Origin: an uncultured Acidobacteriaceae bacterium
Lineage (GTDB): Bacteria; Acidobacteriota; Terriglobia; Terriglobales; Acidobacteriaceae
Assembly (NCBI GenBank): GCA_963736915.1
Contig: CAVTQV010000005.1
Span: forward strand, 124,009-188,008
Reading direction: 5' to 3'
Length of the DNA: 64,000 nucleotides
A model generated the notes under the pieces. It searched no databases, was not told the DNA's origin, and was given only the letters and a program-made list of their open reading frames with translations. Of the stretch, positions 2,757 through 40,675 are shown one piece after another; position 1 is the stretch's first letter; every line of letters starts with the position of its first letter. The position numbers were made by a program, and so were the translations under genes.

Positions 2757-2837
2757 CTGAACTTCTCCTTCATTCTCCTTCACTCGATGCTGCTCACGGC
2801 GGAATCGCGTACTGCGATACACGTTCGGAGGGCGCTT

Positions 2838-3281
2838 CTACTTCGACTTCCCTGCCTTTGCGGTGGCGCGAGCGATCTTCGCGGCCAGGCGCTGCAATTC
2901 GTTTTCGCTGAGCACGTCGGCGCTGACCATGCCTACGAGGAGCGCTTCCACGGAACCGCCGCAGAAGCGATCGACAATGCGCTGCACGGCGCGGCCCGCG
3001 ACGGAGCGGCCGTCCTCGGCGGCGCGATAGAGATACGTGCGCTGCTCGACGGTGTGGGCGAGATAGCCCTTCTCTTCGAGCCGGCGCAGGACGGTGCGGA
3101 CGGTGGACTCCTTCAAGACGCGGCCCTCGGAATGAAGCCGCTCGCGGATTTGCTCGGCGGTGGCCTGGCGCTCCTGCCAGACCATACGCAGGATGGCCTG
3201 CTCGAGTTCGCCAAGGCCTGCGGGATCGTGGTCCTGAGTGTGTGGTTCCGGATTCGGAGGGGCGGAAGTGCTACTGTTCAT
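2838..3281 (-). CDS. BlaI/MecI/CopY family repressor
   Basis: LGELEQAILRMVW…STVRTVLRRLEEKGYL…IVDRFCGGSVEALL. Confidence 0.93.
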   Translation of the reverse strand: MNSSTSAPPNPEPHTQDHDPAGLGELEQAILRMVWQERQATAEQIRERLHSEGRVLKESTVRTVLRRLEEKGYLAHTVEQRTYLYRAAEDGRSVAGRAVQRIVDRFCGGSVEALLVGMVSADVLSENELQRLAAKIARATAKAGKSK

Positions 3282-4753: not shown

Positions 4754-5227
4754 ATGCGAGCAAAGTGTGCGGCAATTGCAGCGATGCTAATGATGATCGC
4801 AGTGGCCGGTTTCGGCCAGGCACGGGTGAAAGTGATTGCCTTGAATGCAGGTAGTCCAGCAGCAAAGGCAGCCGCGAACAACTTAAGTGGAGTCTGGCAC
4901 GGCGAGTACCGGGATTTGCCGTGGGTCACCGTGACGCTTACGCAGGAGGGCGAAGCCTTCTCTGGGGCTATCCTTTTCTATCTGCACCGCAAAACGTCTG
5001 GGAACGCGGAAACGGCGACCGCCGGCACGCCGGAGCCTCTGCTCGACCCGCACTTCGATGGCAAGACGCTGACGTTCCGAGTAAGCACTCGCCACGCCGA
5101 TCCGCCGAAAACGCTTGACGATCCACCAATCGTGATGACCATGGAGATCATCGACCAAGATCATGCCCGGCTGATAAACAAAGAGGATCCGCATCTGACT
5201 GGGCTACTGACCCGGATGTGGCGCTAG
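4754..5227 (+). CDS. Secreted hypothetical protein
   Basis: AAGGAG RBS, signal peptide, co-oriented after SPFH gene. Confidence 0.7.
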   Translation: MRAKCAAIAAMLMMIAVAGFGQARVKVIALNAGSPAAKAAANNLSGVWHGEYRDLPWVTVTLTQEGEAFSGAILFYLHRKTSGNAETATAGTPEPLLDPHFDGKTLTFRVSTRHADPPKTLDDPPIVMTMEIIDQDHARLINKEDPHLTGLLTRMWR

Positions 5228-22862: not shown

Positions 22863-25314
22863 TCAATACTCCAGATAGGCTGCGCGGCGTTGCATGAAGG
22901 CTTCGAGCGCCAGCCGCCAGTCGCCCGCGATGCGCTCGGGATCTTCGCCGGAGCGGAGCGCGTCCAGCACGGACTTGTTCACCAGCAGGTGATCGATGCG
23001 GTCGAGCTTATAGTCGTTCGGATAAAGCTTCCAGAGAGCGGATGCGATCTCGAGGCCGAGCTCCGGGCCGTCGAGCGTATTGCGATCCGTCACCATGATC
23101 GAGACGCCGTGGCAGAGCTGGCCTGCGTAGGGATATGGTTTGGCGGGCGTGAAGCTGACTGGAATAAATCGCAGCCCGGGCAGCAGATCCGCATTGAGCG
23201 TGCGAGCCAGCGTGCGCGCGTCAATCCAGGGCGCACCCAGCAGCTCGAATGGTGTGTCGGTGCCGCGGCCAACGGAGATGTTGCTGGTCTCGATGAGACC
23301 GAGGCCGGTGTAGAGCTCGGCGGCGCGCTGGCTGCGGAGGTTAGGCGAAGGATTGATCCAGGTGAGGCCGGTCGAGTCGAACCAATCGCCGCGCTGCCAG
23401 CCCTGCATCTTCACGACAGTAAGCGCAGCGTTGATGTGGCCTTCGCCGCTGTAATAACGCGCGAGCTCGCCAATTGTCATGCCGTGGCGTACGGGTATTG
23501 GCATGTAGTTGGTGTAACTGTTGTGCCCGATGTCGGACATCGGTCCCTGTACGAAGGAACCCGTCACTGGATTGGGCCGATCGAGCACGACAACATCGAT
23601 GTGGGCTTTGGCCGCGGCTTCGAGCATGTAGCCCATTGCCGCGTCGTAGGTCCAGTAGCGCACGCCCACATCCTGCAAATCGATGATCACTGCATCAAGG
23701 CGTCGCAGCGTGTCGGGCGATGGACGGCGCTTCTCCTCGGATCCGAAGAGACTGATCACCGGCAGTCCGGTGGCAGCGTCCGTCGTGTTGGAGATATTTT
23801 CCGTGTCCTGATTGCCTTGCAGGCCATGCTCCGGGCTGAAGAGCGTGGTGAGCGTGAGGCCGGGGTCGGCTGCGTGCGCGTCGTGTGCGAGCACATCGAT
23901 GGTGCGATGGCCATCACGATCGACCCCGACGGCGCTGGTGAGCAGACCCATGCGCAGATGGCCGCCACGCTTCTTCGCGAGCGCCTGCAAGGTGAGAAAC
24001 TTCTCCGCCTCGAGTACATCGATGCCGGTCGACACATCGCCGTTACGCGCTTGCCAGCGGCGCGCGCCGGTCAGAGATTCGTTGTAGCCGGTGAGTTGCG
24101 CGAGCTGTCCGCTTTCCTGCGTCTTGATCCCGATGGCCTGCGCGGCTGCATCGGCAATGCGCGAGCGCAACGCGACGGTGTGGCCATGGCCGTCCGGGTG
24201 CACGGCGTTCGTGAGGATGATGACATAGCTGTTGCTTTGCGGGTCGATCCAGAGCGACGTGCCGGTGAAGCCGGTGTGGCCGAAGGAACCGACGGGAAAG
24301 AGCGTGCCGCGGTTGCTGGAGAAGGGCGAGTCGATGTCCCAGCCGAAGCCGCGCAGGGACGTGCCGGTGGCGGGCTGCTCCGGCTCGGTCATTTTGGCGA
24401 GCGTGAGTTGGTTGAGCGGGAAGCTGCTGGGCCGGCCGGCGAGGCGATCGAGCAATGCCTGCGCATAAAGCGAAACATCGGCCGCGGTGCTGAAGAAGCC
24501 GGCGTGGCCGGCGACACCTTCCATGCGGCGGGCGGTGGGGTCATGCACGGTGCCGCGCAGCATGGTTCCCGAGGTAGACAGATTGCCTTCCGCATCGACA
24601 TACTGTGTCGGCGCGATGCGGTCGCGCTTCTCGGCTGGCGGCAAGTAGCCGGAGTCTTTCATGCCCAGCGGCGCGACGATGTTGCGCTGCGCATAGAGCT
24701 CCAACGGCAGGCCGGAGACGCGCTCCACCAACGCGCCGAGCGCGATGAAATTCTCGTCGCTGTAGCGGAAGATGACCCCGGCAGGCGCGACGGGCGCCGA
24801 CTCGAAGAGGCGGCGCAGGCCCTCCTGGCGGCCGTGCCATGGGCCGGTGAGGTCGAGGTCGGGCGCGAGGCCGGAGTAGTGGGTGAGGCACTGGCGGATG
24901 GTGATGTCCTGCTTGCCGTTGGCTCCGAACTCGGGAATGTAGTGCGCGACGGGATCGTCGATGCGAATCTTGCCCTGCTCGTAGAGCTGCATCACGGCAG
25001 TAGCGGTGACGAGATCTTTGGTGAGCGAGGCCATGTCGAAGATGGTGTCCTCGGTCATGGCTTCGCGCGTGGGCACGAGCGAGCGTTCACCATAGGCGTG
25101 ATGGAAGATGACATGGCCATCATGGCCGATGACAACGACCGCGCCGGGCAGCTCGTTGTGCGCTACCGCTTCGTTAACGATCGCGTCGATGGGCGCAAAG
25201 GCCGCAGGCCAAAACGCGGGCGGAAGTCTGCGCAGGAGCCTGGGCAGCATGCGCAACAAGCGCGGCAACAGCAATGGACAGCGCGAGAACAGCTTGGCGG
25301 CAATGATGGATCAT
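22863..25314 (-). CDS. Serine hydrolase (beta-lactamase/AmiE-like) fused to NamZ (DUF1343) exo-beta-N-acetylmuramidase; frameshift ~25205
   Basis: SLTK, YSD, GHTGFTG then FSPEHG, DLQDVG.RYWTY, LDRPNP; signal peptide MIHHCRQAVLALSIAVAALVAHA in adjacent frame from ATG 25314, overlapping the SSS stop. Confidence 0.88.
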
Positions 25315-26792
25315 GCGGCGATGGCCCTTTCTTGCTTCGGCAGCAGCAGGCTTGCGACATAGCCGATGGAGGTGGTGATAAGCGCTCCGATCAGCACGTA
25401 CCAGATGAACGCGACTTTGGGGAGGGCCCAGATGTGTCCCGCGGCAAACGGGCCGGGTTGCTGCCAGAGGATGAGATTCACGATGAGTCCGATGATCATC
25501 CCAATGATCGTGCCGGTCTGATTCGCGCGTCGCGTAAGCGTCCCGAGCAGGAAGGCGCCGAGCATCTCGCCCCAGGTAACGGAGGCGATGGAGAGGCCGA
25601 TCTCGACGACATGGCCGCCGGTGCGCGAGAGAACGGCGAGCACCAGCAGCACCACGGCCCATACCGCAGTGAGTATGCGCGAGAGGCGCGTGCGCGCGCG
25701 CTCGTCCATCTCTGGATGACGCGGCAGATAGAAGTCAACCATCGTGGTGGAGGAGAGCGAGTTGAGCGCAGCGCTCATGTTCGACATGGCAGCAGCGAGG
25801 ATGGCGGCGATGACGAGGCCCGAGATGCCGTGCGGCATGTCCTGAACGATGAAGAGCGGGAAGAGGCGATCTGCCGTGCCGACGTGCGCGAGCGTGCCGG
25901 CGGGGTAGAAGACGTAAAGCCCTGCGCCGATGAGCAGGAAGAGCGCGAACTGTATGAAGACGATGACGCCGCTGGCGAGCAGTGCGACCTGCGATTGCGC
26001 CAGGTTCTTTGCGGCGAGCAGGCGCTGCACGACAAGCTGCTCCGTGCCGTGGCTGGCCATTGTAAGGAAGCAGCCGCCGATCAGGCCGCCCCAGAAGGTA
26101 TAGGTCTGGGTGAGCGAGAGGGCGAAATGGAAGACGGTGAATTTATGCGCGGCAGCGGCGGTGTGATGGATGACATGCCAGCCGCCGGGGACCTTCGTGC
26201 CAAGCGTCCAGAGCGCGAGAATGGTGCCGGCGAAATAGAGGAGCATCTGGATGACATCAGTCCAGATGACAGCGGCGAATCCGCCCTCAAACGTGTAGAT
26301 GAGCGTGAGGATGGTCAGAATCACGATCGAGGGAACAGTGCCGGTACCGAAGGCTACGGCGATCACGATGGAGACGGCGAAGATGCGGACACCCTCGGCT
26401 GCTGCGCGCGTCCCGAGGAAGAGGCCGGCGGTGAAGCGATGCAGTGCCTTGCCGAAGCGCTCGCCGATGAGCTGGTAGGCCGTCATGAGCTGGCCTTCAA
26501 AGTAGCGCGGCAGGAAGAGCACGCAGATGACGATGCGACCTAATAAATAGCCGATGGCGATCTGGAGGAAGCCGAAGTCGCCGGTGTAGGCCAGGCCGGG
26601 GATGCTGATGATGGTAAGAGTGCTGGTCTCTGCGGAGACGATGGAGAGCGAGATGGCCCACCAGGGGACGTTGCGGTCCGCGAGGAAGTAGGAGCGAAGT
26701 GAGCGCTGCCCGTGGCGGAAGCGGAGACCGAACCAGGTGATGCCCAGCAGGTAAAGAACGATCGCAAGGACGTCGATGAGGTGGAGCCGCAC
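25311..26792 (-). CDS. Sodium:solute symporter
   Basis: YFLADR..PWWAIS.SIVSAETS, GG..AVIWTD, QL.VQRLL, AAAMS. Confidence 0.93.
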   Translation of the reverse strand: MRLHLIDVLAIVLYLLGITWFGLRFRHGQRSLRSYFLADRNVPWWAISLSIVSAETSTLTIISIPGLAYTGDFGFLQIAIGYLLGRIVICVLFLPRYFEGQLMTAYQLIGERFGKALHRFTAGLFLGTRAAAEGVRIFAVSIVIAVAFGTGTVPSIVILTILTLIYTFEGGFAAVIWTDVIQMLLYFAGTILALWTLGTKVPGGWHVIHHTAAAAHKFTVFHFALSLTQTYTFWGGLIGGCFLTMASHGTEQLVVQRLLAAKNLAQSQVALLASGVIVFIQFALFLLIGAGLYVFYPAGTLAHVGTADRLFPLFIVQDMPHGISGLVIAAILAAAMSNMSAALNSLSSTTMVDFYLPRHPEMDERARTRLSRILTAVWAVVLLVLAVLSRTGGHVVEIGLSIASVTWGEMLGAFLLGTLTRRANQTGTIIGMIIGLIVNLILWQQPGPFAAGHIWALPKVAFIWYVLIGALITTSIGYVASLLLPKQERAIAA

Positions 26793-28838: not shown

Positions 28839-28845
28839 GTCTGGC

Positions 28846-29094
28846 TACCCACCCCTCCCCCTCCCGCCGCGGGAGGTTGACTTGTAACTGACCTGGAATC
28901 ATCAGGATAGGGCCTGTCCCGAGGCTCAAATTCGTCTTTCTAAAGGGCTTATCGCTTCATTCGTCATTCCAAAGGGTTTAGCCCCTCGACGACGGGGCCG
29001 ACTCGATAGATAAATGACAAAAGCCACCTCAACGGTGGCTTTTGTCGTTTGACTCTATTTCCAGTGTAGCGAATCGAGGGAAATTAACTGGCAG
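28846..29094. repeat. Dispersed modular non-coding element, copy A
   Basis: Colinear with 40263-40493; core 28927-28980 is 49/54 identical to 40338-40391. Confidence 0.85.
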
Positions 29095-29167
29095 AATTTT
29101 GGCTGCTGTTCCCGATTCGGGAGTTACCGGATTTTGCACTGTTACTGCGCGTGCCACAATCTCCGGT

Positions 29168-29377
29168 ATGGGCTCTGCTCGAGAACGGATAAGACGTGTA
29201 TCGCGATGGACCTGGTGGATTCCGGGAGCCATTGTTTTCGTCGCGTATATTGCCTCCGCTTACATTTGGCCGACTGCACATGGCGATGAGCGACGGCTGC
29301 TTCGCCGGTTCTTTGCGCTCATTGCCCTTGGGATTTTATTTGGATCCGGCTGGCTGATCACCCGGTGGCGGGAGTAA
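29168..29377 (+). CDS. Small 2-TM orphan protein (69 aa)
   Basis: Two hydrophobic helices; TGC-CACAAT extended -10 seven nt before ATG; lower GC. Confidence 0.55.
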   Translation: MGSARERIRRVSRWTWWIPGAIVFVAYIASAYIWPTAHGDERRLLRRFFALIALGILFGSGWLITRWRE

Positions 29378-29413
29378 ATGCGAACTAGTGGTCTATGAGA
29401 TTCGGCGCGGGTA

Positions 29414-29492
29414 CGAATCCGGTGACCCTTCGGGTTGACTACATTGTTTGGGAACTACCCCACCCTAGCCTTCGGCTAGAGTAGGGCACCCG
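29414..29492. repeat. Downstream partner motif with REP-like hairpin, copy A
   Basis: TGACCCT.CGGGT.GACT..ATTGTTT..GAACTACCCCACCCT…TTCGGCTAGAGTAGGGCACCCG shared with 40546-40621. Confidence 0.85.
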
Positions 29493-29512
29493 ATTCTTTT
29501 CTCGACTCCGAC

Positions 29513-30806
29513 TTAATCGGTGGCGACGAGGTCGACGCTGGGGCCGGTGGGGCGGGAGCCGCGGAAGCCGTAATAGATGATGAACAGGTAACAGAGGAAC
29601 GGCAGGATGAAGCAGTGGTGGATGCCGATCTTGTCGGCAATTGCGCCTTGGGCGACGGGAATGATGGCGCCGCCGACGATGGCCTGAACGAGCAGGCCGG
29701 ATGCCTTGCCGGTGAGCGGTCCCATGTGCGCCGTGCCCAGGGTGAAGATGCTGGGGAACATGATGGAGTTGAAGAGGCCCACTAACAGAATGGTGATGAT
29801 GGCGGTGTGCCCATTGGTGAGCATGGAGGTGACGACCAGCAGCGAGGTCACGATGGCGCATATTCCAACGACTCGTCCTGTGGGAACGCGGCGCAGAACG
29901 CCAACCCCGATGAAGCGGCCTATCATGCGCGCCGCCCCAGTAGAGCGCTACCAATTTGCTGGCAGTGGCCGCAGGTACAGAGCCGAGATCGTGACTCCCC
30001 ATGTAGTTGACGGCAAAGCTGCCGATGGATACTTCGGCGCCGACATACAGGAAGATGGCGATGGCGCCGAGCCAGACGTGATGGTGCTCCCAGATGGAGC
30101 CGAGGGGATTTTCAGCGCTGCCGGTGGTGCGGAATTCCTGCGTGGTCTGGAGACGCGGCAACTTGACCAAGGCGATCGCGATAGCGAGCAGGACAAGCGC
30201 GATCCCGATGCCTGCGTAGGGCGCCTTGACCGAGGCCGCCTGCTGCTGGCGCGACATATTGGCAAGCCCGGCGGCTCCGGCAAGGATGAGCACGCTGCCG
30301 AAGTACGGCGCGATGGTGGTTCCCAGCGAATTGAATGCCTGGGTCAGATTCAGGCGGCTGGACGCGGTCTGCGAAGGCCCGAGGACGGTGACGTAGGGAT
30401 TGGCGGCAACCTGCAAGGCGGTGACGCCGGCGGCGAGGATGATTTGCGCGGCGAGAAAGAAGGGATACGATGGCACGCTGGCAGCGGGCAGGAAGAGGAA
30501 GACGCCCACAGCCATGACGCCGAGACCAACCACCATGGTGCGCTTGTAGCCGATGGCCTCAATCAGCTTGGCGGCGGGCTGCGCGAAGATAAAGTAACTG
30601 CCGAAGAACGCGAGATTGATCAGCTGGGACTTGGTGTAGTCCAGCTCGAAGATCTGCTTGAGATGCGGGATGAGCGTATCGTTCAGCGCGGTGAGAAAGC
30701 CCCACATGAAGAAGAGCGTTGTCACGATGGTCAGCGCCCGGCCGTAGTGCGCGCTGCCGCTCTCTGAAACAGAAACCGTTTGTCCTGAAGCGCTGCCTAG
30801 AGCCAT
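29513..30806 (-). CDS. FucP/GluP family MFS sugar transporter (frameshift ~29928)
   Basis: LFFMWGF, LQVAANPYV, RLNLTQAFNSLG, YVGAEV; C-terminus MIGRF…NSIMFP.IF in ORF 29513..29926. Confidence 0.9.
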
Positions 30807-30956
30807 CCGTTCCCGGGACCTCGTGAGGACACTAACATAAATGGGCGAGCCGTTGCGCGTAGCACAGAGTACCCGATTTTGCGGTTATGCAAGTGCTGGT
30901 GGCGGGCTCGCCGGCGAACTGCAGGCCGCATAACCGGCTCAGACGATGGCGGCAAT

Positions 30957-31487
30957 TCAGGTTGGGAAGAAGAGGTCTTCCACTTCCAGCCAGTTGTTGA
31001 CGCGCACCTTGGCCACGACGTTTGCGTTGTGCGCCGCGGTGAAGAGAACGCCCTGGCCGGCAAAGCGCTGGAAGTGGCGCGGCATGTCGTCGATGAGGTA
31101 GTCGGCATGCAGGATGCTCTTGTCTCCGCAGAAGACGAAGCGCGTGGGCGAGAGGAAAGGAAAGTGCCGCTCCAGCCAGCGGAATTTCGGGCCGAAGGAG
31201 TTGGGGAATTCCATGGCTGCGGTGGCGACAAAGATTTCATAGCGGCCGGAGAGACGCTCGAGGACGCGCTGGCTGTCTGGCATGACGTCGAGATCTTCGA
31301 AGAAGTCCTTCTCCTGCAGGTAGGCCATCAGCCGGTCCTGGCGCTCCGCCGGGAGCACGTTGACCATCCAATTGCCCCACATATCCTGTACGGTCAGGTT
31401 TTCAGAAAACTCCGCGTTGTACAGACGAATGAGTTTGCCGAGGGCGTCGGCGAGCACCTCGTCCATGTCGACAGCAATTCGCTTCAT
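30957..31487 (-). CDS. 5'(3')-deoxyribonucleotidase (NT5C, HAD)
   Basis: IAVDMDEVLAD, K..WL..HFPF, DYLIDD. Confidence 0.92.
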   Translation of the reverse strand: MKRIAVDMDEVLADALGKLIRLYNAEFSENLTVQDMWGNWMVNVLPAERQDRLMAYLQEKDFFEDLDVMPDSQRVLERLSGRYEIFVATAAMEFPNSFGPKFRWLERHFPFLSPTRFVFCGDKSILHADYLIDDMPRHFQRFAGQGVLFTAAHNANVVAKVRVNNWLEVEDLFFPT

Positions 31488-32242
31488 GCGGTCTGCGCGC
31501 CGCTTGCGGTACCGGGCCGGCCGGTCTCAATCTGGGGCTCGCGGCGATTGTCCACATAAAGGATGCGGCCGCAGCTTTCGCACTTCATCGACTGGCCGTC
31601 GCGCAGCTGATTCCAGAGCTGCGGGCGTATACCCATCTGGCAGCCGGTGCAGCGCTGATCGCGGGCGCGGGCCAGCGCGGTGCCGCGCGCTGCGGCGATG
31701 CGGTCGTACTCGGCGAGGCGGTCTTCATCAATTTGCGGGCGAAGCGCTGCGCGCTCCTCCTGCCATTTGCTGAGGTCGGCCTGCTCCAGCACGGTGCTGC
31801 GCGCCGCCGCGGCTTTTTCTGTTTCGAGATAGGCGGCGTGACTTGCGTGCTGCTGACGCGCGGCGAGCAGTTCGCGCTCGAGGATGTCGGAGCGCTCCAT
31901 GCTTTCGAGCTCGCTGTCTTCGAAGCGGCTGATCTCCTGCTCCGCGAAACTGATCTGGTGCTCGAGCGCGGTGGCCTGCGCCTGGTTCTGCACGATGTTG
32001 AGCTGCTGGCGCGACTTGGCGATCTTTCCCTGCTGGTCCTTGAGATCGCTTTCCAGGCGGCGGCGCAGTGCTTCTTCTTCGCGCTGGCGCTTTTCGAAAT
32101 CGGCGATGCTCTTTGCGTGAGCGGCGAGCTCGGCTTCGATGGAGCGAATGCGGCGCGGTGTGGCTTCGAGTGAGGCGCGGAGCTGGCGGATTTCCCCGTC
32201 GAGCTGCTGGAGGCGAATCAGGTTCTCGAGGGTCTGGTCCAT
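31484..32242 (-). CDS. Coiled-coil plus C4 zinc ribbon protein (CT398/HP0958-like)
   Basis: L..LQ.LD.EI, long coiled coil, CTGC…CESCGRIL. Confidence 0.9.
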   Translation of the reverse strand: MDQTLENLIRLQQLDGEIRQLRASLEATPRRIRSIEAELAAHAKSIADFEKRQREEEALRRRLESDLKDQQGKIAKSRQQLNIVQNQAQATALEHQISFAEQEISRFEDSELESMERSDILERELLAARQQHASHAAYLETEKAAAARSTVLEQADLSKWQEERAALRPQIDEDRLAEYDRIAAARGTALARARDQRCTGCQMGIRPQLWNQLRDGQSMKCESCGRILYVDNRREPQIETGRPGTASGAQTA

Positions 32243-32394
32243 AGATGGGTGGAGTCTAAATCATTTTAGCTGGGCGATAGCCGCGGCGCGGGCTCCGGAG
32301 ATCCCGGTTATCAGTCCGCATGAGGCAGGCAGTAGCCGGCGGCATTGCGTTCTTTGTCCGGATCGCAGGCGACGGAAGAGTAAACTTATAACTG

Positions 32395-33567
32395 ATGTTG
32401 TTCCCCGCGCGTCCCTTTCGATTGGCTCTTGTATCCACTGCTCTGGTTGTGTGTTCGCTGCTCCCGCCGATGCTTCGGGGACAGTCACCGTCTGACGCTT
32501 CGCTTTCCAAACAGGTCATTGCAACGGCAGCGCCCGCTCCGCTGCTGCCGGAGAGCTTCGCGGGCTTTGAGCTGCAGGGCAAGCTGGACAAGACCACCGA
32601 GCCGGGCACGGCGGATGCGGGCAATGCGCAGGTACTGGTGGAGGACGGCTTCCGCGACTTCGCCTCCGGCACGTATAAGAGCAACGTCAACACGGTGACG
32701 GTTCGCGCGATGCGATTCGCCGACGCCTCCGGCGCCTATGCCGCTTACACCTTCTATCGGATTCCAGGGATGGCTCCTGAAGACATCGGCAAGGGTGGAG
32801 CGGCCAATGGCGACCGCGTGCTCTTCTGGAATGGCGCGATCGTGGTGGACGCAAAGTTCGACCATCTGACTGCGATGTCTGCCGCTGCATTGCGGGAGCT
32901 TGCGGACCGGGTGCCGAAGGTTGGCGGATCGGCGGGTGTGCCGCCCGCGCTGCCCGGCTTTCTGCCTCGCACCGATCTGGAGCCGACGCACACGCGCTAC
33001 TCGCTGGGCCCGCAGGGCTACACGCGCAGCGGCGGTGTGCTGCCGGCTGCGCTGGTGGACTTCAGCAAGAGCCCCGAGGTGCTCAGCGGCGGATTTAACA
33101 TGCGAAGCGGAGAAGGGACCCTCACGATCATCGAGTATCCGACGCCGCAGATTGCCGCCGAGCGCGAGCGGGCGATTGCGGCATATCTGAAGGCGGGCAA
33201 TCAACCGCAGGAGCCCTTTACGGCCGCCCTGCAGAGTAGCAACGTACAGGCGCTTGCGACGCGCCGCAGCGGTCTGCTGGTCGGCATCACGAGCGGCGGG
33301 TTCGATGCCGGAGATGCGCACAAACTGCTGGACAAGGTGAACTACGAAGCTTCCGTGACCTGGAACAATCCGGCGGGCTATGTTCCGGACACCACAAAGG
33401 CGGCTCGGCTGCTGGTGAATGTGGTGACGTTCTGCCTGATCACCTGCGGCGCGACGTTTCTGCTGGGGCTGTTTCTCGGCGGCGGGCGGGCACTGTACCG
33501 CATTGCTCGAGGCAAGCCGGCCTCGTCGGTGGAGGAGATGGAGTTCATCAAGCTGAATCTCCGGTGA
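32395..33567 (+). CDS. Membrane-anchored periplasmic hypothetical protein
   Basis: Signal peptide, C-terminal TM helix, ends EFIKLNL. Confidence 0.8.
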   Translation: MLFPARPFRLALVSTALVVCSLLPPMLRGQSPSDASLSKQVIATAAPAPLLPESFAGFELQGKLDKTTEPGTADAGNAQVLVEDGFRDFASGTYKSNVNTVTVRAMRFADASGAYAAYTFYRIPGMAPEDIGKGGAANGDRVLFWNGAIVVDAKFDHLTAMSAAALRELADRVPKVGGSAGVPPALPGFLPRTDLEPTHTRYSLGPQGYTRSGGVLPAALVDFSKSPEVLSGGFNMRSGEGTLTIIEYPTPQIAAERERAIAAYLKAGNQPQEPFTAALQSSNVQALATRRSGLLVGITSGGFDAGDAHKLLDKVNYEASVTWNNPAGYVPDTTKAARLLVNVVTFCLITCGATFLLGLFLGGGRALYRIARGKPASSVEEMEFIKLNLR

Positions 33568-33803
33568 GCCCGAGTGTGGCGGATGTGCGACCAGATGTAG
33601 CCAGATTGCTACGGCTGTGCGGTCCCAAATTGAACCATGAACAGTGCAGTGCCTCAACTAACCTGAACAATCGGTTTAGGTTAGGAGGAGTAAAAATTTT
33701 GCTCAAGGCGAACACCAGGCGAATATATAGCGTGTTTTAGGACAATCTTCGTATCCTGCTAAGCCGCTTGTAATCTTGCGGTTACGAGGAAAATGATTTG
33801 GCC

Positions 33804-33832
33804 TTGACACCCCAATAGGCCACCCATACTAT
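33804..33832 (+). promoter_or_regulatory. sigma70 promoter
   Basis: TTGACA-N17-TACTAT. Confidence 0.8.
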
Positions 33833-33838
33833 GACGCC

Positions 33839-33918
33839 AAGAAAGTTCTGATGGCCTTGCCTCCGTTGGAACTATTCTCCCTAGAGAAAAAGCCACCCTG
33901 TTGCCGGGTGGCTTTTTC
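33839..33918 (+). ncRNA. Candidate ~80 nt sRNA
   Basis: Between the promoter and an intrinsic terminator; 11-bp hairpin with CCTTGCCT loop; TTCTCCCT linker. Confidence 0.65.
33886..33918 (+). terminator. Intrinsic terminator
   Basis: AAAAAGCCACCC-TGTTGCC-GGGTGGCTTTTT. Confidence 0.85.
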
Positions 33919-34045
33919 GTGTTTTGCGGACGATACGGGATGTCCGAATTCATGCGGCGCCTGCTTCCCTACCACTGACGTTGGAGTGAATGGCTGGGTC
34001 ACGCCGCCTATGGTTGCCTTCAGGTGTCCGAAAGGAAATCACAGG

Positions 34046-34429
34046 ATGGCAGGACGCAAGGCACTTCCCGAGTGGTGCGAGTACGTTATTGATCCCGGCG
34101 TCGATCGAATGAAACCTGGACTCTATCAGTGGACGATAGACGGCGCGGACATTTACATCGGCAAGTACACACACAGCAGAAGGCCCGAACGGGAATATGC
34201 ATTGAATGTCGAGCGGCTCCTTGCCGGCAAGCCCTACCACAACAAAGGCAAAGACTTTCGAGCTATTCACTACGCACTTGCGAAAGCTGTTCAAGAGGGA
34301 CGCCGAATCGAACTTCGTTTGCTAGCGAACAAGGATTCAGCAACCATTCTCGCGTGTGAAAATGAATTGATTCGATTGCACGGCACGCTGAATCGCACCG
34401 GAAGCCGAGCAACAAAACCAAAGAGCTAA
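34046..34429 (+). CDS. Stand-alone GIY-YIG-like nuclease
   Basis: PGLY…IYIGK, CENELI (Glu), terminal LN; AAAGGA upstream; lower GC. Confidence 0.7.
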   Translation: MAGRKALPEWCEYVIDPGVDRMKPGLYQWTIDGADIYIGKYTHSRRPEREYALNVERLLAGKPYHNKGKDFRAIHYALAKAVQEGRRIELRLLANKDSATILACENELIRLHGTLNRTGSRATKPKS

Positions 34430-34487
34430 CAGGAGCCGCACCAACTTTACCGTTTCTGCTTGGCGACGCTACAATCCAGTAGGGAAC

Positions 34488-34563
34488 GCCGACGTAGCTC
34501 AGTTGGTAGAGCAGCCGATTCGTAATCGGCAGGTCACCGGTTCAAGTCCGGTCGTCGGCTCCA
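34488..34563 (+). tRNA. tRNA-Thr(CGT)
   Basis: Cloverleaf; anticodon arm GCCGA-TTCGTAA-TCGGC; encoded CCA. Confidence 0.97.
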
Positions 34564-34799
34564 GACAAGGTGGAACCAAGCTCGGTTCCTCTTGGGTTTT
34601 GTACCTCTTTTTCCTCTTTTATTTCAGCTTTGCGGCTTGCACCGTCAGCCGCGACTCCGCATAATCGCGCTAAGCATCTTCGGGAATCCTGTGATGCACG
34701 AGGATTTTCTCGGCAGTGGTGGAACGGCCTACAGCGATACCGAAATGCTTGAGCGGTCTGGAGCAGATGGGGCTTCGTCCCCTCGACGAGCGTGACGCT

Positions 34800-35756
34800 G
34801 TGAGCAGATATAGCCGTCAGGACGTTCTTCGCATTCTGCGCCTTCGTGCCCGGCAGGTTTCGGCATGGGAGCGTGCGGGCCTGATCGAGACGGGCGAGTC
34901 GTATAGCTTTCAGGACCTGGTAAAACTCCGAAAACTTCGTGATCTGCGCGCAAACTGTGTTTCCGTTGCGCACATTCGTGCGTCCGTGGATGCCATGCAG
35001 GCCGTTTCGGGCATGAGTAATCCCCTGCTGGAGGCGACTGCCTCGCGTCGCGGTTCGCGCGTGGTCTTTCGCCATTCCGGTGCAGTCATGGAGCCGATCG
35101 CGCGTCAGTTCGTCTTCGATTTCGACGCGCCGGCCTGCGGCGAGCTATCGGTTGTGGCGAATACCAATTCCAAACCCGCGGCCGCGGACGGCCGTGTCTC
35201 CGCATTGTTCCTGCAGGCGGTGCAGCTTGAGGAGAGCGGCAGGATGGATGAGGCGGCTGAAGCGTATGAAGAGTTGCTGCACCTCGATCCGCACCACGCG
35301 CCATCCTCGATCAATCTGGGCACGATCTGCTACAACCGGCGGGCATTCCGGCGCGCAGAGGAGCTGTATCGCCGCGCCACCATCTCCGATCCGGGCTATG
35401 CGCTGGCCTTCTTCGATCTTGGAAACGTGCTCGACGAGCTGGAGCGCCTGCCCGATGCCATCGAAGCGTACCGCAGCGCCATACGGCTGGTGCCCAAGTA
35501 TGCCGATGCGCATTACAACCTGGCGCTGGCCTACGAGCGCATCGGAGAGCGGCGGCGCGCTCTGCGCCATTGGACGCTGTACCTGAAGCTGGACCCGGTA
35601 GGCCCGTGGGCAAACCATGCTCGCACGCAGGCGCGGAAAATTCTGTCGCGGGAGAAGCTGACGATCGTGCACCGCTCGCCGTGGGTTTCGCGGCGACGTC
35701 CCGAATCGCGGAGTGCGCAGGCGACTGCTGAACACGGGCCCGGCCTTCCCGCCTGA
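34800..35756 (+). CDS. MerR-like HTH plus TPR protein
   Basis: YSRQDV.RIL…W.RAGL…YSFQDL N-terminus; several TPRs (YADAHYNLA). Confidence 0.85.
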   Translation: MSRYSRQDVLRILRLRARQVSAWERAGLIETGESYSFQDLVKLRKLRDLRANCVSVAHIRASVDAMQAVSGMSNPLLEATASRRGSRVVFRHSGAVMEPIARQFVFDFDAPACGELSVVANTNSKPAAADGRVSALFLQAVQLEESGRMDEAAEAYEELLHLDPHHAPSSINLGTICYNRRAFRRAEELYRRATISDPGYALAFFDLGNVLDELERLPDAIEAYRSAIRLVPKYADAHYNLALAYERIGERRRALRHWTLYLKLDPVGPWANHARTQARKILSREKLTIVHRSPWVSRRRPESRSAQATAEHGPGLPA

Positions 35757-35818
35757 ATTGCGCGTTCCGATGAGCTCGTAAAATCCCAGTCGGCGGCGCA
35801 TCCAAGTCAAACAGCTTT

Positions 35819-36550
35819 ATGCCAAGGCAGCCTGGCAATCCGCGGCCGGCGACGCACGCGATCCCACTGATCTGTCTGCTCTGTGCAGTGGCCGGCTCAG
35901 TCGATGCATCCGCCTACCTGCTGAGTGGGCGCGTCTTTGTTGCGAACATGACGGGCAATACCGTACTGTTCGCCATCTCGCTGCTGCAGCGGAATCCGGG
36001 AGAAGTTGCGCTGCGCGGCGGCCTGGTAGCGGCGTTTCTGGCTGGTGTGATCATCGCGCGTCTCCTGGCCAGGATCGCCGGGCGAAAGCGCCGACGAAGA
36101 TGCAGCGCATCGCTATTCTCGGCATTGAATCGGCCGTCTTGCTCATGCTCGCGTGGAAGAACGCCGGAGCGCACGCAGGTCTTTTGCTGTTGCTGCTGGC
36201 CTGTATTCTCGGGGTACAAAACGGCGCCTTCCGGTACATTGGCGGTTTCCACCTGAACACCACGTTCATCACCGGGGATCTGGAGTTGCTGGGCGAAGCG
36301 ATCATAGATTCCCGAAGGTCGGATTCCCGGAATTCGGAGTCGCAGAATCCGGATCCGCGGAATTCGCGCGCCAAGGTGAGCGCCTTCGTGCTGAGCTGGG
36401 TGGGATATGCCGGCGGCGCGTTGCTAGGCGCGCTGGGCGCGGTGAAGTTTCCTCATCATGGATTTCTTGCCGTCGATGATGCTGGCGCTGGCATCGCTCA
36501 TAGCAGTGATGCTGATGCCGGAAGGGTCCGGGCATCGGCAGGAAAAGTGA
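35819..36550 (+). CDS. YoaK/DUF1275 membrane protein (frameshifts ~36085, ~36475)
   Basis: AGSVDA…FVANMTGN.V in first frame; G.QNG…NTTFITG in second; hydrophobic tail in third ending TGA 36550. Confidence 0.8.
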
Positions 36551-36692
36551 TCTGAGAAGCATCTGTGCCAATGCCTACTTTCCGATTCCGTCAGAATGCA
36601 TGCATTCAACTGACCCTGCTACACTCTTCCGTTTGGACGGAGACTGCACGGCTTCTCTCCACGTCAATCTGTAGAAGTGAGGTGTACATATC

Positions 36693-37874
36693 ATGTCCGT
36701 AGTGGCCCTGGAATCTCCCCATGCATCGCCGTTGAGCCGGCTTTCCGAAGATGAGCTGATGTTTCGTGACACGGTTCGCCAGTTTGCCGGCGAGATTATA
36801 GGGCCGCTGGTGCGCAAGATGGATGAGGAGCAGCATTTTCATCCTTCCCTGCTGCCGCAGCTCTTCAATCTGGGTTTGATGGGAATTGAAATCCCGGTGG
36901 AATACGGGGGCGCGGGCGGCACCTTCTTTGAAGCCATCCTTGCGGTGGAAGAGATCTCCGCGGTCGATCCCTCGGTCGGCGTGATGGTGGACGTGCAGAA
37001 CACGCTCTCCATTAACGCGCTGCTGCGCTGGGGCAGCGAGGCGCAGAAGAAGCATTATCTGCCGAAGCTTGCGACGGAGATGGTGGGCGCGTACGCGCTG
37101 AGCGAAGCCGGCTCCGGCAGCGATGCCTTTGCGCTGGAGACTCGGGCGGAGCGCAAGGGCGACCACTATGTGCTGAACGGACAGAAGTTGTGGATTACGA
37201 ACGCGAAGGAAGCCGGCGTGTTCATCGTCTTCGCGACGATGGACCGAGCCGCCGGCTACAAAGGCATTACGGCGTTCCTGGTGGAGAAGCACTTCCCCGG
37301 TTTTTCTGTCGGCAAGAAGGAAGACAAGCTGGGCATCCGCGCTTCTTCAACATGCGAGCTGATCTTCGATGACTGCAAGGTGCCGGCCGCGAATGTGCTG
37401 GGCGAGGTGGGCAAGGGCTACAAGATCGCGATCGAGACGCTGAACGAAGGGCGCATCGGCATCGGCGCGCAGATGCTGGGGCTGGCGCAGGGTGCGTGGA
37501 ACCACGCAGCGCACTACGCGAAGGAGCGGAAACAGTTCGGAAAACCTATCGCGGAGTTCCAGGGCGTGCTGTTTCAGCTTGCCGAGATGGCGGTTGAGAT
37601 CGAAGCGACGCGGATGATGGTTTACAACGCTGCCCGGCTGAAGGATGCCGGCCTCGACTTTGTGAAAGAAGCGGCGATGGCGAAGTACTTCGCCTCGCAG
37701 GTGGCGGAACGCGCGGCGAGCAAGGCGGTCGAGATCTACGGCGGCTATGGCTTCGTGAAGGACTATCCGGTGGAGAAGCTCTATCGAGACGCGAAGATCG
37801 GCAAGATTTACGAAGGCACCTCGAACATGCAGCTCCAGACGATTGGAAAGCTGTTGCTGAGTCAGGTTAAGTAG
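36693..37874 (+). CDS. Acyl-CoA dehydrogenase (short/branched chain type)
   Basis: ALSEAGSGSDA, LNGQK.WITN, KLGIRASST, ERKQFG, YRDAKIG.IYEGT. Confidence 0.96.
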   Translation: MSVVALESPHASPLSRLSEDELMFRDTVRQFAGEIIGPLVRKMDEEQHFHPSLLPQLFNLGLMGIEIPVEYGGAGGTFFEAILAVEEISAVDPSVGVMVDVQNTLSINALLRWGSEAQKKHYLPKLATEMVGAYALSEAGSGSDAFALETRAERKGDHYVLNGQKLWITNAKEAGVFIVFATMDRAAGYKGITAFLVEKHFPGFSVGKKEDKLGIRASSTCELIFDDCKVPAANVLGEVGKGYKIAIETLNEGRIGIGAQMLGLAQGAWNHAAHYAKERKQFGKPIAEFQGVLFQLAEMAVEIEATRMMVYNAARLKDAGLDFVKEAAMAKYFASQVAERAASKAVEIYGGYGFVKDYPVEKLYRDAKIGKIYEGTSNMQLQTIGKLLLSQVK

Positions 37875-37890
37875 CTGCAAGGCCGTGAAT

Positions 37891-38439
37891 TCATCCGGTT
37901 GATTCTCCGGCTGAACGGATTGCGCGCTCTATTTGGCGTGCGTGGTGCCGCGCGTGTGTGCGGTGGAAGCGGCGCCACCGTTCTACGCTGAGCGGCCCCA
38001 GCAGAAAATGAGTCAGCACGGGCGCATTCTTCGACTGTGGCTCGATGCGATTCAGCATTGAGTCCATCGCGGCGAGCGTGGCGCTGAAACGGGCGATCAA
38101 CTCATCGCCAGTTAGTGGCTCACCCGATGGCTCGCCGGGTTGCACCGCGAGCGGCGCTTTGCGGGCTTTGGGAAAGTAGCCACATTCACAGACCGCCAAT
38201 TGTTTGACGCGTTGCGCAAACGTAGGACGCGTGAGCAGCGGCCTTCCCTTCCGGAGGCGATCCTCAATGCCGCTGGTGGTGGATCGCCAGGTGGCGGAGA
38301 GGTGCTCGACTACCTGCTGCGCGCTCCACCGGGCCGGGTCTCCGGCTGGATGGCGGACGACCTGCTCGGCAGAGCGGCCGGCTAACGGCGCGCTCACCAG
38401 CTCCCGTATCTCATCGAGCAGAGGATGCACGGCTGCCAT
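37891..38439 (-). CDS. DinB/DUF1569-like protein
   Basis: WS..QVVEHL, H..LGPLS…W..FH..H..HH. Confidence 0.8.
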   Translation of the reverse strand: MAAVHPLLDEIRELVSAPLAGRSAEQVVRHPAGDPARWSAQQVVEHLSATWRSTTSGIEDRLRKGRPLLTRPTFAQRVKQLAVCECGYFPKARKAPLAVQPGEPSGEPLTGDELIARFSATLAAMDSMLNRIEPQSKNAPVLTHFLLGPLSVERWRRFHRTHARHHARQIERAIRSAGESTG

Positions 38440-38534
38440 TGTCGGCAGCGGGATGTGCGGTGGTCAAGCGGCGCGGTTGTGCCTGTGCTGCTGCTCTTCG
38501 AGTATGCTGGCGTTTGTTTTGGAGGGGAAGATAC

Positions 38535-40259
38535 ATGCGGCGATTGTGGATTCTGTTCTGTCTGGCGATTTGGGCGTGTGGGACGGCGACCGCGCAGACT
38601 CAGGCGGAGCCGCTGAAGACGAACGGTGATGTGTGGTGGAAGCACGCGGTGATCTACGAGGTGTACCCCCGCAGCTTCCAGGACACGGACGGCAATGGGA
38701 CGGGCGACATCAAGGGCATTCAGCAGCGGCTGAGCTATCTGAAGTCGCTGGGTATTGATGCGATCTGGATTACGCCGATGTATCCGTCGCCGCAGGTGGA
38801 TTTCGGCTATGACATCGCGGACTATGAGGCAATCGATCCGCAGTACGGCACGATGGGCGACTTCGACAACCTGATGAAGGCGGCGAAGCAGCAGGGCATC
38901 CGGGTCATTATGGATATGGTGATGAACCATACTTCGGACCAGAACCCGTGGTTCCTGGAGTCGCGGTCGTCGAAGACCAATCCCAAACGCGACTGGTATA
39001 TCTGGCGCGACGGCAAGAATGGCGGACCGCCGAACAACTGGCAGTCGTGGTTCGGCCACTCGGCCTGGACTTACGATCCGAAGACCAAGCAGTACTACTA
39101 CCACTACTTCTATGTGCAGCAGCCGGACCTGAACTGGCGCAATCCCGAGGTGCGCAAGGCGATGTATGACGTGATGCGCTTCTGGCTGGACAAGGGCGTT
39201 GCCGGATTCCGCATCGATGCCATCTCGCGGCTCTTCGAAGACCCGAACCTGCATGATGATCCGATTCTGCCGGGCACAAATGCCTTTGGCGATCCGAACA
39301 TCGAGCACAAGTACACGGACAATCTGCCGGAAGTGCATGACGTGCTGAAGGAGATGCGCAAGCTGGTGGACAGCTATCCGGGACATCCGGTGCTGCTCTC
39401 CGAGGCGGACGAGCCGAATATCGTCGAGCTGTCAAAGATGTATGGCACGCACGATGATGAGGTGCAGTTGCCGATGGATTTCCAGATCGCGGATGTGAAT
39501 GAGCTTTCCGCGACGAAATTTCGCAAGCTGTTTGATGATGTGGAGAACAATCCGGCGCATGGGTGGCCGGAGTACTTCTTCAGCAATCATGACCAGGCGC
39601 GGCAGTGGGACCGCTATGGCGACGGCAAGCACAACGATGAGATCGCGAAGCTGATGGCGGCGCTGGAATTGTTGCCGCGGGCCACCCCCCAGATGTACTA
39701 CGGGGAGGAGATCGGGATGCGCACTACGGTGCCCACCCGGGTGGAGGATGTGCGCGATCCCGTCGGTGTGACCGGGTGGCCGAAGGACAAGGGCCGCGAT
39801 GGGGAGCGCACGCCGATGCAGTGGACACCGGCGCGGCCGAATGCCGGGTTTACGTGGCCGACGGCGAAGCCGTGGCTGCCAGTGCCGCCGAGTTCGGTGA
39901 CGTATAACGTGGAGACCGAGTCGAAGGACCCGACGTCGATCCTGAATTTTTATAAGCAACTGCTGACGCTGCGGCGGACCGAGCCGGCGCTGGTGAGCGG
40001 TGGCTACGTGACGATCAATCCGGATGATCCGAATGTTTTTTCGTTCCTGCGGCACTATCTGGGGAATGGCCGCTCGGTGCTGGTGGCGCTGAATATGAGC
40101 GACAAGCCGCAGATGGTGACCTATGACCTGACGTCGCAGGGGGTGACCGGGGGCGTGGGGCTGATGCTGCTGAACAGTTACGGTTACGAGAGCAAGACGA
40201 TCCGGCTGGACCACATGACGATTCCGCCGTTTGGGACGGCGGTGGTGGGGGTTAAGTGA
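38535..40259 (+). CDS. Secreted GH13 alpha-glucosidase
   Basis: Signal peptide; YPRSFQD, DFGYD, NHTS, GFRIDA, NHDQ, YYGEEIGM, RDGERTPMQW. Confidence 0.95.
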   Translation: MRRLWILFCLAIWACGTATAQTQAEPLKTNGDVWWKHAVIYEVYPRSFQDTDGNGTGDIKGIQQRLSYLKSLGIDAIWITPMYPSPQVDFGYDIADYEAIDPQYGTMGDFDNLMKAAKQQGIRVIMDMVMNHTSDQNPWFLESRSSKTNPKRDWYIWRDGKNGGPPNNWQSWFGHSAWTYDPKTKQYYYHYFYVQQPDLNWRNPEVRKAMYDVMRFWLDKGVAGFRIDAISRLFEDPNLHDDPILPGTNAFGDPNIEHKYTDNLPEVHDVLKEMRKLVDSYPGHPVLLSEADEPNIVELSKMYGTHDDEVQLPMDFQIADVNELSATKFRKLFDDVENNPAHGWPEYFFSNHDQARQWDRYGDGKHNDEIAKLMAALELLPRATPQMYYGEEIGMRTTVPTRVEDVRDPVGVTGWPKDKGRDGERTPMQWTPARPNAGFTWPTAKPWLPVPPSSVTYNVETESKDPTSILNFYKQLLTLRRTEPALVSGGYVTINPDDPNVFSFLRHYLGNGRSVLVALNMSDKPQMVTYDLTSQGVTGGVGLMLLNSYGYESKTIRLDHMTIPPFGTAVVGVK

Positions 40260-40262
40260 CGG

Positions 40263-40493
40263 TACCCCCCCCTCCCGTCACCGGAGGCTGGCTTGTAACT
40301 CTTTTGGTTGCTATAGGATGGGCGGCCTTCCGAGGGCCAAATTCTTCTTTCTAAAGGGCTTATCGCTTTATTCGTCATTCCACAGGAGTTAGGGGCAGCG
40401 AATACCTCGCAAAATAGAAAAGCCACCGCTGTGGTGGCTTTTTGTTTCCGACTCTGTTTCCAGTGTAGCGAAATGGATGTAATTAACTGGCAG
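40263..40493. repeat. Dispersed modular non-coding element, copy B
   Basis: Colinear with 28846-29094. Confidence 0.85.
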
Positions 40494-40545
40494 GTTTTGA
40501 CGATTTGTTCGTGTTGCTGTTCCGTTATGGACCGGCTGGGTCAGA

Positions 40546-40650: not shown

Positions 40651-40675
40651 AAATATGACAACCCCTGTCATATTT
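40651..40675. promoter_or_regulatory. Perfect inverted repeat, likely operator
   Basis: AAATATGACA-ACCCC-TGTCATATTT, 70 bp upstream of ORF 40745. Confidence 0.55.

Follow-up and report, generated by a model that had tools for sequence, protein, structure and literature searches.

A paired non-coding cassette in an Acidobacteriaceae genome as a candidate small RNA gene with an antisense transcript across a shared terminator

Sibling genes for trans-acting small RNAs (sRNAs) that end in intrinsic terminators are exemplified by OmrA/OmrB, Qrr1-4 and PrrF1/2, and sRNAs derived from the 3' untranslated region (3'-UTR) of an mRNA by CpxQ, SroC and MicL. Hairpin-ended non-autonomous IS200/IS605 derivatives and miniature inverted-repeat transposable elements (MITEs) are brought in here for comparison of their features. 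The par locus of pAD1 encodes a ~230-nt RNA I and a ~40-nt RNA II from convergent promoters, with a shared bidirectional terminator and direct repeats (PMC7472228). Here, we report a non-coding cassette of ~290 bp, present twice in a 64-kb stretch (61% G+C; the whole stretch is called the window below) of the genome of an uncultured Acidobacteriaceae bacterium (contig CAVTQV010000005.1), together with 11 relatives from other genomes.

We tentatively read the two copies, with confidence a little short of even, as paralogous sRNA genes, each opposed by a short antisense transcript that ends at the same terminator. The copies are conserved and carry a promoter signature and hairpins that resemble terminators in two directions; they contain no open reading frame (ORF), no conserved fold and no mobile genes. 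Both transcripts, with the ends and roles proposed for them below, are predictions from sequence. What is new is a candidate bacterial sRNA family absent from Rfam 15, whose unusual trait would be an invariant antisense promoter set against a bidirectional terminator.

Layout of the two copies and their relatives

Copy A (28846-29094) and copy B (40263-40493) share 72.07% identity over 247 bp (blastn, E 2.1e-31), and a permissive nhmmer search (--max) found no third copy in the window. An initial annotation of this DNA had described an element in two copies that agree in orientation and module order, and this observation is confirmed. The finer details of that description also held: the 54-bp core is identical at 49/54 positions (28928-28981 versus 40339-40392); it contains two tandem units ~29 bp apart, which agree with each other at 20/24 positions in copy A and 16/24 in copy B; a hairpin AAAAGCCACC-N5-GGTGGCTTTT lies at 29019-29043 and 40418-40442; the minus strand reads CTGCCA-N20-TACACT in both copies, with spacers of differing sequence; and a plus-strand stop codon precedes each start by no more than 8 bp (TAG at 28838, 8 nt; TGA at 40259, 4 nt). 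The boundaries had been drawn too narrowly. Conservation among the 13 members spans ~28841-29133 and 40251-40521 (family profile), and on the right it takes in an extra hairpin (29110-29123), in which the stem of the left one (28860-28876) recurs.

On the plus strand, the module order in the 13 copies is a short motif (GGTNACGKTACC or ..CTACC), a C-rich tract, the left hairpin (hpL), stretches b and c, T[CT]CCGAG..CAAA, two tandem units, a linker, the GCCACC hairpin, module v, a T-rich stretch, the right hairpin (hpR) and TTACC. All modules occur in 13/13 copies, in this single order and orientation, and nhmmer searches with a full-cassette profile and with profiles for five sub-modules found no further copy and no isolated module in the window or in the 26 loci described below. 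The features of the two copies are as follows.

28840..28862, plus strand: copy A, left boundary motif (..GGCTACC) and C-rich tract (conservation onset in the family alignment; nhmmer envelope from 28841)
28860..28876, plus strand: copy A, left hairpin hpL, CCTCCCG-N3-CGGGAGG (RNAalifold helix)
28881..28908, plus strand: copy A, modules b and c (CTTGTAAC ... CAGGAT), a putative non-sigma-70 promoter
28917..29047, plus strand: copy A, predicted small RNA of ~130 nt (5' end placed at the conservation onset, 3' end at the intrinsic terminator)
28928..28981, plus strand: copy A, 54-bp core (49/54 versus copy B), with tandem 29-nt units at 28930-28958 and 28959-28987
28981..28998, plus strand: copy A, linker hairpin GCCCC..GGGGC (folding)
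29011..29051, both strands: copy A, predicted bidirectional intrinsic terminator, core 29019-29043 (terminator scan of both strands)
29010..29056, minus strand: copy A, putative short antisense RNA of ~46 nt, from the module v start to the minus-strand terminator with its U-tract
29056..29094, minus strand: copy A, predicted extended -10 promoter of module v (-10 TACACT 29068-29063, G-14 at 29070, CTGCCA 29094-29089, +1 at 29056)
29110..29128, plus strand: copy A, right hairpin hpR, TCCCG-ATT-CGGGAG, then TTACC (repeat search)
40251..40287, plus strand: copy B, left motif (GTGACGGTACC), C-tract and hpL (40271-40287) (family alignment and profile)
40292..40319, plus strand: copy B, modules b and c (CTTGTAACT ... 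TAGGAT) (alignment)
40328..40447, plus strand: copy B, predicted small RNA of ~120 nt, core 40339-40392 (alignment and terminator scan)
40418..40442, both strands: copy B, predicted bidirectional terminator hairpin (scan positive fully on the minus strand and in part on the plus strand)
40455..40493, minus strand: copy B, predicted module v promoter (-10 40467-40462, G-14 at 40469, CTGCCA 40493-40488, +1 at 40455)
40519..40532, plus strand: copy B, degenerate right hairpin GTTC-CGTTAT-GGAC (weak; displaced by a 12-nt insertion)

Relatives were sought in species-representative genomes with an exact 18-mer from the core as the pattern, which returned 26 loci. Eleven of these, all from metagenome-assembled genomes (MAGs) of Acidobacteriaceae, match the profile of the two window copies over its full length, so the homologues elsewhere that the initial annotation had proposed to count do exist. 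The other 15 match the 18-mer alone and belong elsewhere, a Blastocatellia and a Bryobacteraceae MAG being among them; by our own arithmetic, ~17 chance matches were expected. In two cases a single MAG has two copies (L012 together with L025, and L015 together with L017, the latter pair in MAG MFD09368). Copies with a mismatch in the 18-mer were missed, and the copy numbers (1-2 per MAG) and the taxonomic range are therefore lower bounds. To judge from these sequences, the family is found so far only in Acidobacteriaceae and is represented by at least two old paralogues per genome.

At the gathering thresholds of Rfam 15, only two tRNAs pass across the whole window. Searches at E values up to 10 gave 13 weak matches per copy, every one on the terminator hairpin, the best being OrzO-P (27.5 bits versus a threshold of 60; E 0.021). 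The cassette had no match in plasmid and phage collections, and the literature excerpts retrieved contained no paper describing it. The element had been called undescribed, and with neither an Rfam match nor a description in those excerpts it can still be called so. Acidobacteria are abundant in soil and, judged by the part of the literature that our search reached, have hardly any characterized regulatory RNAs; the cassette offers a concrete, testable candidate with starts, ends and strands predicted for two transcripts, and 13 sequences are available to start a family model.

Predicted terminator, promoter and transcripts

The hairpin shared by the two proposed transcripts folds at -18.7 kcal/mol on the plus strand and -19.9 kcal/mol on the minus strand in copy A, and across the 13 copies the folding energies lie between about -11 and -20 kcal/mol, whichever strand is taken. 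Every copy (13/13) has at least four A before the hairpin on the plus side and at least three T after it. The stem is nearly invariant, as would be expected if both strands must fold, because a single transition then breaks one direction. The variant in L021 and L024 has a C-A mismatch on the plus strand and G-U on the minus strand, beside one fully compensated pair. Elsewhere in the window, 33880-33923 weakly matches the terminator part of the family profile on both strands (E ~0.007), and is probably just another terminator of the A-run, hairpin and T-run kind.

Module v faces this hairpin on the minus strand. Four positions are invariant there in 13/13 copies, namely T-12, A-11 and T-7 of a TAnnnT hexamer together with G-14, and it is the sole such site in 404 alignment columns on either strand; the runner-up TAnnnT, on the plus strand at column 126, is present in 7/13 copies. 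The hexamer occurs as TACACT, TACTCT, TACAAT, TACTAT and TAAACT, varying only at inner positions, and is preceded by TT[CT]G[CTG]. G-14 with TAnnnT is the signature of the sigma-70 extended -10 element, which can function without a good -35. CTGCCA lies 20 nt upstream of the hexamer, across a spacer of fixed length and free sequence; this is too distant for a normal -35, and accordingly a stricter two-hexamer promoter scan reports none. The inward promoter proposed by the initial annotation is thus the best-supported of its features, as a predicted promoter with a signature in every copy and no second such site, and the starts that it placed at 29056 and 40455 agree with an independent count of 7 nt from the hexamer. 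MerR promoters have a 19-20-bp spacer, and a MerR-type reading of CTGCCA and TACACT with their 20-nt spacer was considered and rejected, the spacer having no dyad and varying freely. The tRNA gene at 34488 is preceded by TTTACC-N18-TACAAT (34447-34476), itself preceded by GACGC, in what looks like a local promoter style; the CGCTACAAT context upstream of this tRNA gene matches module v.

With the module v promoter directed at the terminator hairpin, its transcript would be only ~45-65 nt long, comprising 10-30 variable nt followed by the hairpin. The gamma copies (L002, L011, L014 and L015, named after their common context, below) have an extra 16-20 nt (..TCTGTGACTGG..) between terminator and module v, at columns ~285-305, which would extend the predicted antisense RNA to ~65 nt.

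On the other strand, conservation in the 13-copy alignment jumps at T[CT]CCGAG and continues through the tandem units. The agreement between the units was equalled in 0 (copy A) and 1 (copy B) of 1,000 shuffles, and a shared unit consensus, ..A.T.GTC.....A..GG..TTA, is kept in at least 11/13 copies, so that the repeat first noticed in the window is a property of the family. The linker between core and terminator is unalignable, usually contains a hairpin and varies by up to ~90 nt between copies, so that the core 18-mer begins 52 to 142 nt ahead of the terminator. This left half is conserved in sequence, not in structure. Its 137 nt fold no better than dinucleotide shuffles in 13/13 copies on either strand (z -1.6 to +2.5), and RNAalifold gives a covariation term of +0.07 and 25 consensus pairs, of which only three show compensatory change. 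For the core hairpin, which is invariant by ascertainment, 77/78 cells pair on the plus strand and 51/78 on the minus strand; the small hairpins of units 1 and 2 also pair better on the plus strand, that of unit 2 being kept in two different registers (by eye). The five common pairs of hpL form in 63/65 cells on the plus strand, with three U-G cells, from L023 and L017.

Several other candidate features were rejected. The long-range helices GGATAGG/CTTATC, CCAGT/ACTGG and TTCGTCATT/AATGAC are intact in some copies and broken in others. As for CsrA-type GGA motifs, unit 1 has GGG in place of GGA (by eye). A minus-strand ORF beginning beside the C-tract in the gamma copies has no codon-position signature.

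A structured cis-regulatory RNA, such as a riboswitch or attenuator for a neighboring gene, would place a terminator hairpin after a conserved region, as here, and the relaxed Rfam searches did return leader and attenuator models. Those matches stem from the terminator hairpin and score well under the gathering thresholds, the left half folds like its shuffles with compensatory change at 3/25 pairs, and the downstream genes vary in identity and orientation, which together make this explanation extremely unlikely. We consider a type I toxin-antitoxin locus of the par/Fst kind similarly remote, and close to refuted. The layout and sizes resemble par, and a frame of 22-29 codons recurs across the core (a 24-codon ORF in copy B). 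Most copies, though, lack an ATG, GTG or TTG start for it at the conserved position, and in L014 and L015 it is preceded by an in-frame stop; its third codon position is the least variable (0.37 versus 0.72 bits), the reverse of a coding pattern; the peptide would be basic rather than hydrophobic (by inspection), and a Shine-Dalgarno sequence is absent. On neither strand of the 13 copies does any ORF keep both its start and its stop. Extra 5' complementarity between the two transcripts is also absent (0/13 copies beat 95% of shuffles).

Modules b and c may hold the promoter of the plus-strand RNA. Stretch b reads TGTAAC or TATAAAC and stretch c ..GGAT or GGTT; both evolve fast (55-73% identity between orthologues), with invariant TA and G.T positions ~20 nt apart that lie ~32 and 10 nt upstream of T[CT]CCGAG. 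The spacing and the conservation step have a promoter-like geometry that makes this a candidate promoter. AAC-N16/17-G[AT]T occurs in 10/13 copies, and promoters of the extracytoplasmic function (ECF) type have an AAC-containing -35 and a GTT-like -10. The sigma-54 consensus has GG and GC exactly 10 nt apart (TGGCAC-N5-TTGC); a sigma-54 reading of the plus-strand TGGCA was rejected, GC being in the required place in only 2/13 copies (copy A and L021, by eye).

We propose, conditionally, that the cassette is a compact, chromosomally fixed non-coding unit in which two convergent transcription units share one intrinsic terminator. The plus-strand sRNA, of ~100-190 nt, would consist of an unstructured, near-invariant 5' stretch, a freely evolving linker hairpin and the terminator. 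Modules b and c may supply an alternative-sigma promoter for it, or it may be processed from the read-through transcript of the co-directional gene upstream; the orientation bias of the upstream gene (below) favors processing. It would act in trans through the invariant stretch, either by base pairing with mRNAs or by offering an RNA-binding protein a platform with two sites. The minus-strand transcript of ~45-65 nt would run from the extended -10 promoter of module v straight into the same hairpin. All that is conserved in it is the complement of the terminator hairpin at the 3' end of the plus-strand RNA, from which a control function is suggested: the antisense RNA, or the act of transcribing it, may determine where the plus-strand RNA ends, how stable it is or how far read-through proceeds.

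A more elaborate version, which we regard as a long shot, is a toxin-free sense/antisense module, kept as at least two paralogues across Acidobacteriaceae, in which a constitutive promoter yields an antisense RNA that gates the 3' end and lifetime of a stress-sigma-dependent RNA. In it, the two tandem repeats would dock a trans-acting partner that co-evolves with them, and the matching end hairpins and TACC motifs would reflect descent from a domesticated single-strand (HUH-type) mobile element. Such co-evolution would explain a T-to-G change in L015 and L017, the two paralogues of MAG MFD09368: both units of both copies read AAAGTCGTC, where most copies read AAATTCGTC (alignment columns 98-106 and 127-135), and the gamma orthologues L002, L011 and L014 keep T. 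Four identical changes in one genome suggest that the units have co-evolved with a trans-acting partner, or else that gene conversion has acted locally.

The same change, as if tracking a trans-acting partner, also bears on a DNA-level explanation, in which units of the AATTCG type and the palindromes bind a transcription factor or nucleoid protein that controls module v, RNA from the left half being irrelevant. It would account for a sequence conserved without structure; the core has ATTCG twice in direct orientation, an inverted ATTCG adjoins the minus-strand -10 on its upstream side, and hpR is centered near -64 from the predicted start by our count. The inverted ATTCG copy, however, lacks the T-to-G change. 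The supposed sites would lie downstream of the promoter and past a terminator, and their distance from it is inconstant because the linker varies by up to ~90 nt, a poor geometry for a DNA-bound regulator. The stems of hpR differ between copies yet stay complementary, which fits a folded strand and not a double-stranded operator. We give this explanation little credence. A suggested likeness of the repeated sites to IHF or recombinase arm sites is not supported, no such consensus being seen when the alignment was read by eye.

Genomic contexts and divergence

The 13 copies (two in the window and 11 elsewhere) lie in nine gene contexts in ~10 genomes, and three of the contexts are common to several species. 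Copy A and L025 follow the same 161-amino-acid (aa) gene (context alpha), copy B and L001 follow the same alpha-amylase-family gene (beta), and L002, L011, L014 and L015 share the third (gamma); L012, L021, L023, L024 and L017 are in contexts that occur once. The genomes of L001 and L025 are closely related to that of the window, their flanking proteins being 70-98% identical. Neighboring genes are ordinary metabolic and housekeeping genes. Those upstream are unrelated between contexts (a 161-aa unknown family, alpha-amylase family, SprT-like, AHSA1, GNAT and peptidase M3), and those downstream differ in identity and orientation. At L001, a 110-nt insertion (oriented ~4803-4912; window equivalent 40259-40263) separates the alpha-amylase-family stop codon from the cassette. 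Its breakpoints, at GTGAC and GTAAC, resemble a deletion between short repeats.

The ends of the cassette invite comparison with mobile DNA. The palindromes at 28861-28874 and 29110-29123 share 79% identity on the same strand and are part of no longer inverted repeats; TACC stands to the left of the C-tract and TTACC directly after hpR. Hairpins of the hpR type are present in ~10/13 copies (alignment read by eye) with differing stems (TCCCG/CGGGA, TTCC/GGAA and CCCA/TGGG), are weak or absent in ~3/13, and in copy B the hairpin is identical to that of its orthologue at 10/18 positions.

One explanation is accordingly a relic of a non-autonomous mobile element, of the hairpin-ended IS200/IS605 type or a MITE, long fixed and perhaps domesticated. 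IS608 has subterminal hairpins and a TTAC target, and here both ends carry the palindrome TCCCG-N3-CGGGAG on one strand, with TACC or TTACC outside. The 13 copies are spread over nine contexts, and the clade-B copies found in the window and in the closely related MAG MFD09671 lie behind different genes, one of the alpha-amylase family and one SprT-like, respectively. Against this, no transposase, integrase, recombinase or HUH gene was found among 135 ORFs (61 in the window and 74 flanking the 11 loci), paralogues are only 63-69% identical with no near-identical copies, no module occurs alone, plasmids and phages gave no match, and hpR is degenerate or absent in ~3/13 copies. An invariant internal promoter, terminator and core are unexpected of a relic. 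All three cross-species contexts are occupied at the same site, although the scan could fetch occupied sites only; occupancy of fixed orthologous positions, which the initial annotation had listed among the observations that would count against its proposal, is thus what three contexts in different species display. With few, diverged and syntenic copies and no mobility gene in the flanks, the suggestion of a mobile element is not upheld, and we hold a relic to be improbable.

Divergence was measured on cassettes without the 18-mer and the linker. Orthologous cassettes nearest the window (two pairs) are 72-75% identical, the gamma pair L002/L014 84%, and paralogues within a genome 63-69%. In comparisons of the window with L001 or L025, four-fold degenerate sites of flanking genes show 78-81% identity. 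Identity by block reaches 81-100% in hpL, 84-95% in CCGAG..CAAA, 74-89% in unit 2 and 83-87% in module v, while identity in stretches b and c, in the T-rich stretch and in the linkers does not exceed the neutral level; invariant positions are present in every module. Within blocks, paralogues are nearly as similar as orthologues, the pattern that fixed constrained positions would give, and orthologous intergenic DNA is unalignable just beyond the cassette. A tree of 279 columns has two clades (split support 0.985), with finer branches weakly supported and orthologues not all pairing. Both clades are represented, by one copy apiece, in the window genome and in MAG MFD09671, and the duplication is therefore older than these species; the divergence pattern has no sign of recent copying.

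The main rival to paired sRNA genes is a portable 3'-UTR with its terminator acting in cis, in which the plus-strand part is the tail of the upstream mRNA: the C-tract and hairpin would serve 3'-end protection or processing, followed by regulator sites and a strong terminator, and the inward promoter would block or collide with read-through. In 8/9 contexts the upstream gene is co-directional (one-sided binomial p 0.02, our arithmetic). Its stop codon lies 3-17 nt before the approximate C-tract start in alpha, in the window copy of beta, in L017 and in L023 (four contexts), hpL follows directly after the stop codon, and scans found no plus-strand promoter. Yet the upstream genes are unrelated between contexts, the left neighbor of L024 (a DUF1905/OmdA gene) is divergent from the cassette, the nearest co-directional gene at the gamma loci ends 275-307 nt away, the L001 cassette is undisturbed despite the 110-nt insertion after the stop codon, and a plain terminator has no need of a ~65-nt invariant core. 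We judge a cis-acting 3'-UTR unlikely. If the cassette is merely such a module, it is ordinary; if the paired sRNA genes are real, they are a simple natural case of an sRNA with its own antisense control.

Several observations weigh against paired sRNA genes. The orientation of the upstream gene, like the stop codons 4-8 nt before the starts first assigned in the window, fits a 3'-UTR element equally. The plus strand gave 0 sites in the sigma-70 promoter scan and has no conserved TAnnnT, and the alternative-sigma reading of modules b and c draws on AAC-N16/17-G[AT]T in 10/13 copies and on general consensus motifs. Invariance of the core 18-mer is built in, because it served as the search pattern. 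The whole cassette does not evolve more slowly than neutral DNA, because identity between orthologues (72-75%) is not above that at four-fold sites (79%), and the case for selection rests on the blocks, not on the cassette as a whole. The antisense 5' part is not conserved past ~+4, which leaves no conserved 5' seed, and in 0/13 copies did extra complementarity between the antisense and plus-strand RNAs beat 95% of shuffles. Strand evidence conflicts: the L021/L024 terminator variant has C-A on the plus strand and G-U on the minus strand, and module v (CCAGT/ACTGG pairing) and hpR, which lie outside the predicted plus-strand RNA, also have more plus-strand G-U cells.

Other features of the window were noted. 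A palindrome at 40655-40671 (ATGACA-N5-TGTCAT), ~75 nt upstream of a 209-aa ORF at 40745, is conserved between the window and L001 amid otherwise unalignable intergenic DNA, and may be an operator for that ORF. To the right of copy A, a 69-codon ORF (29168-29377, plus strand) has the look of a small membrane protein by eye and no Pfam match; the region is unalignable in the orthologous L025, so the ORF is probably outside the cassette. A 1217-aa ORF (22890-26543, plus strand) has no Pfam match at E 0.001 and a third-position G+C content (GC3) of 0.64, low for the window. At 510-3278 (minus strand), a BlaR1-type peptidase M56 sensor adjoins a regulator of the penicillinase-repressor family, an ordinary two-gene signaling pair.

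Comparison with known systems

Hairpin-ended IS200/IS605 derivatives and MITEs resemble the cassette in its size of ~290 bp, its lack of an ORF, its similar end palindromes on one strand and the TACC/TTACC outside the hairpins. The cassette differs from them in low copy number, strong divergence and syntenic occupancy, in having no transposase nearby and in its conserved internal promoter, terminator and core. MITEs are recognized by many high-identity copies; here there are two in the window and, as a lower bound, 1-2 per MAG, with paralogues at 63-69% identity.

Like 3'-UTR-derived sRNAs, the cassette directly follows the stop codon of a gene in the same orientation and extends as far as the terminator of that gene, and a canonical promoter would be unnecessary if the RNA is made by processing. 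Unlike them, the same RNA would follow unrelated genes, and the L024 copy has no co-directional upstream gene.

The architecture of par/Fst is shared in several respects: predicted convergent units with a bidirectional terminator, so that the terminator stem-loops of the two RNAs are complementary, and one long RNA (~130-230 nt) and one short (~40-65 nt), with direct repeats (PMC7472228). Of two convergent promoters, one is predicted in the cassette (module v) and the plus-strand one was not found in scans. The cassette differs in having no toxin ORF, repeats in the long RNA only and no second region of complementarity, and it is chromosomal and syntenic, in a different phylum. Because it has no toxin ORF, it falls outside what defines par/Fst.

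Sibling trans-acting sRNAs share with the cassette several diverged copies per genome, an invariant single-stranded stretch beside freely evolving linkers, a Rho-independent terminator at the end, an intergenic position and the absence of an ORF. Unlike them, the cassette has no recognizable sigma-70 promoter on the RNA strand and no sequence relationship to them (no Rfam match); its conserved stretch is long (~65 nt) with an internal tandem repeat, and it has a conserved antisense promoter abutting the terminator and conserved flanking hairpins.

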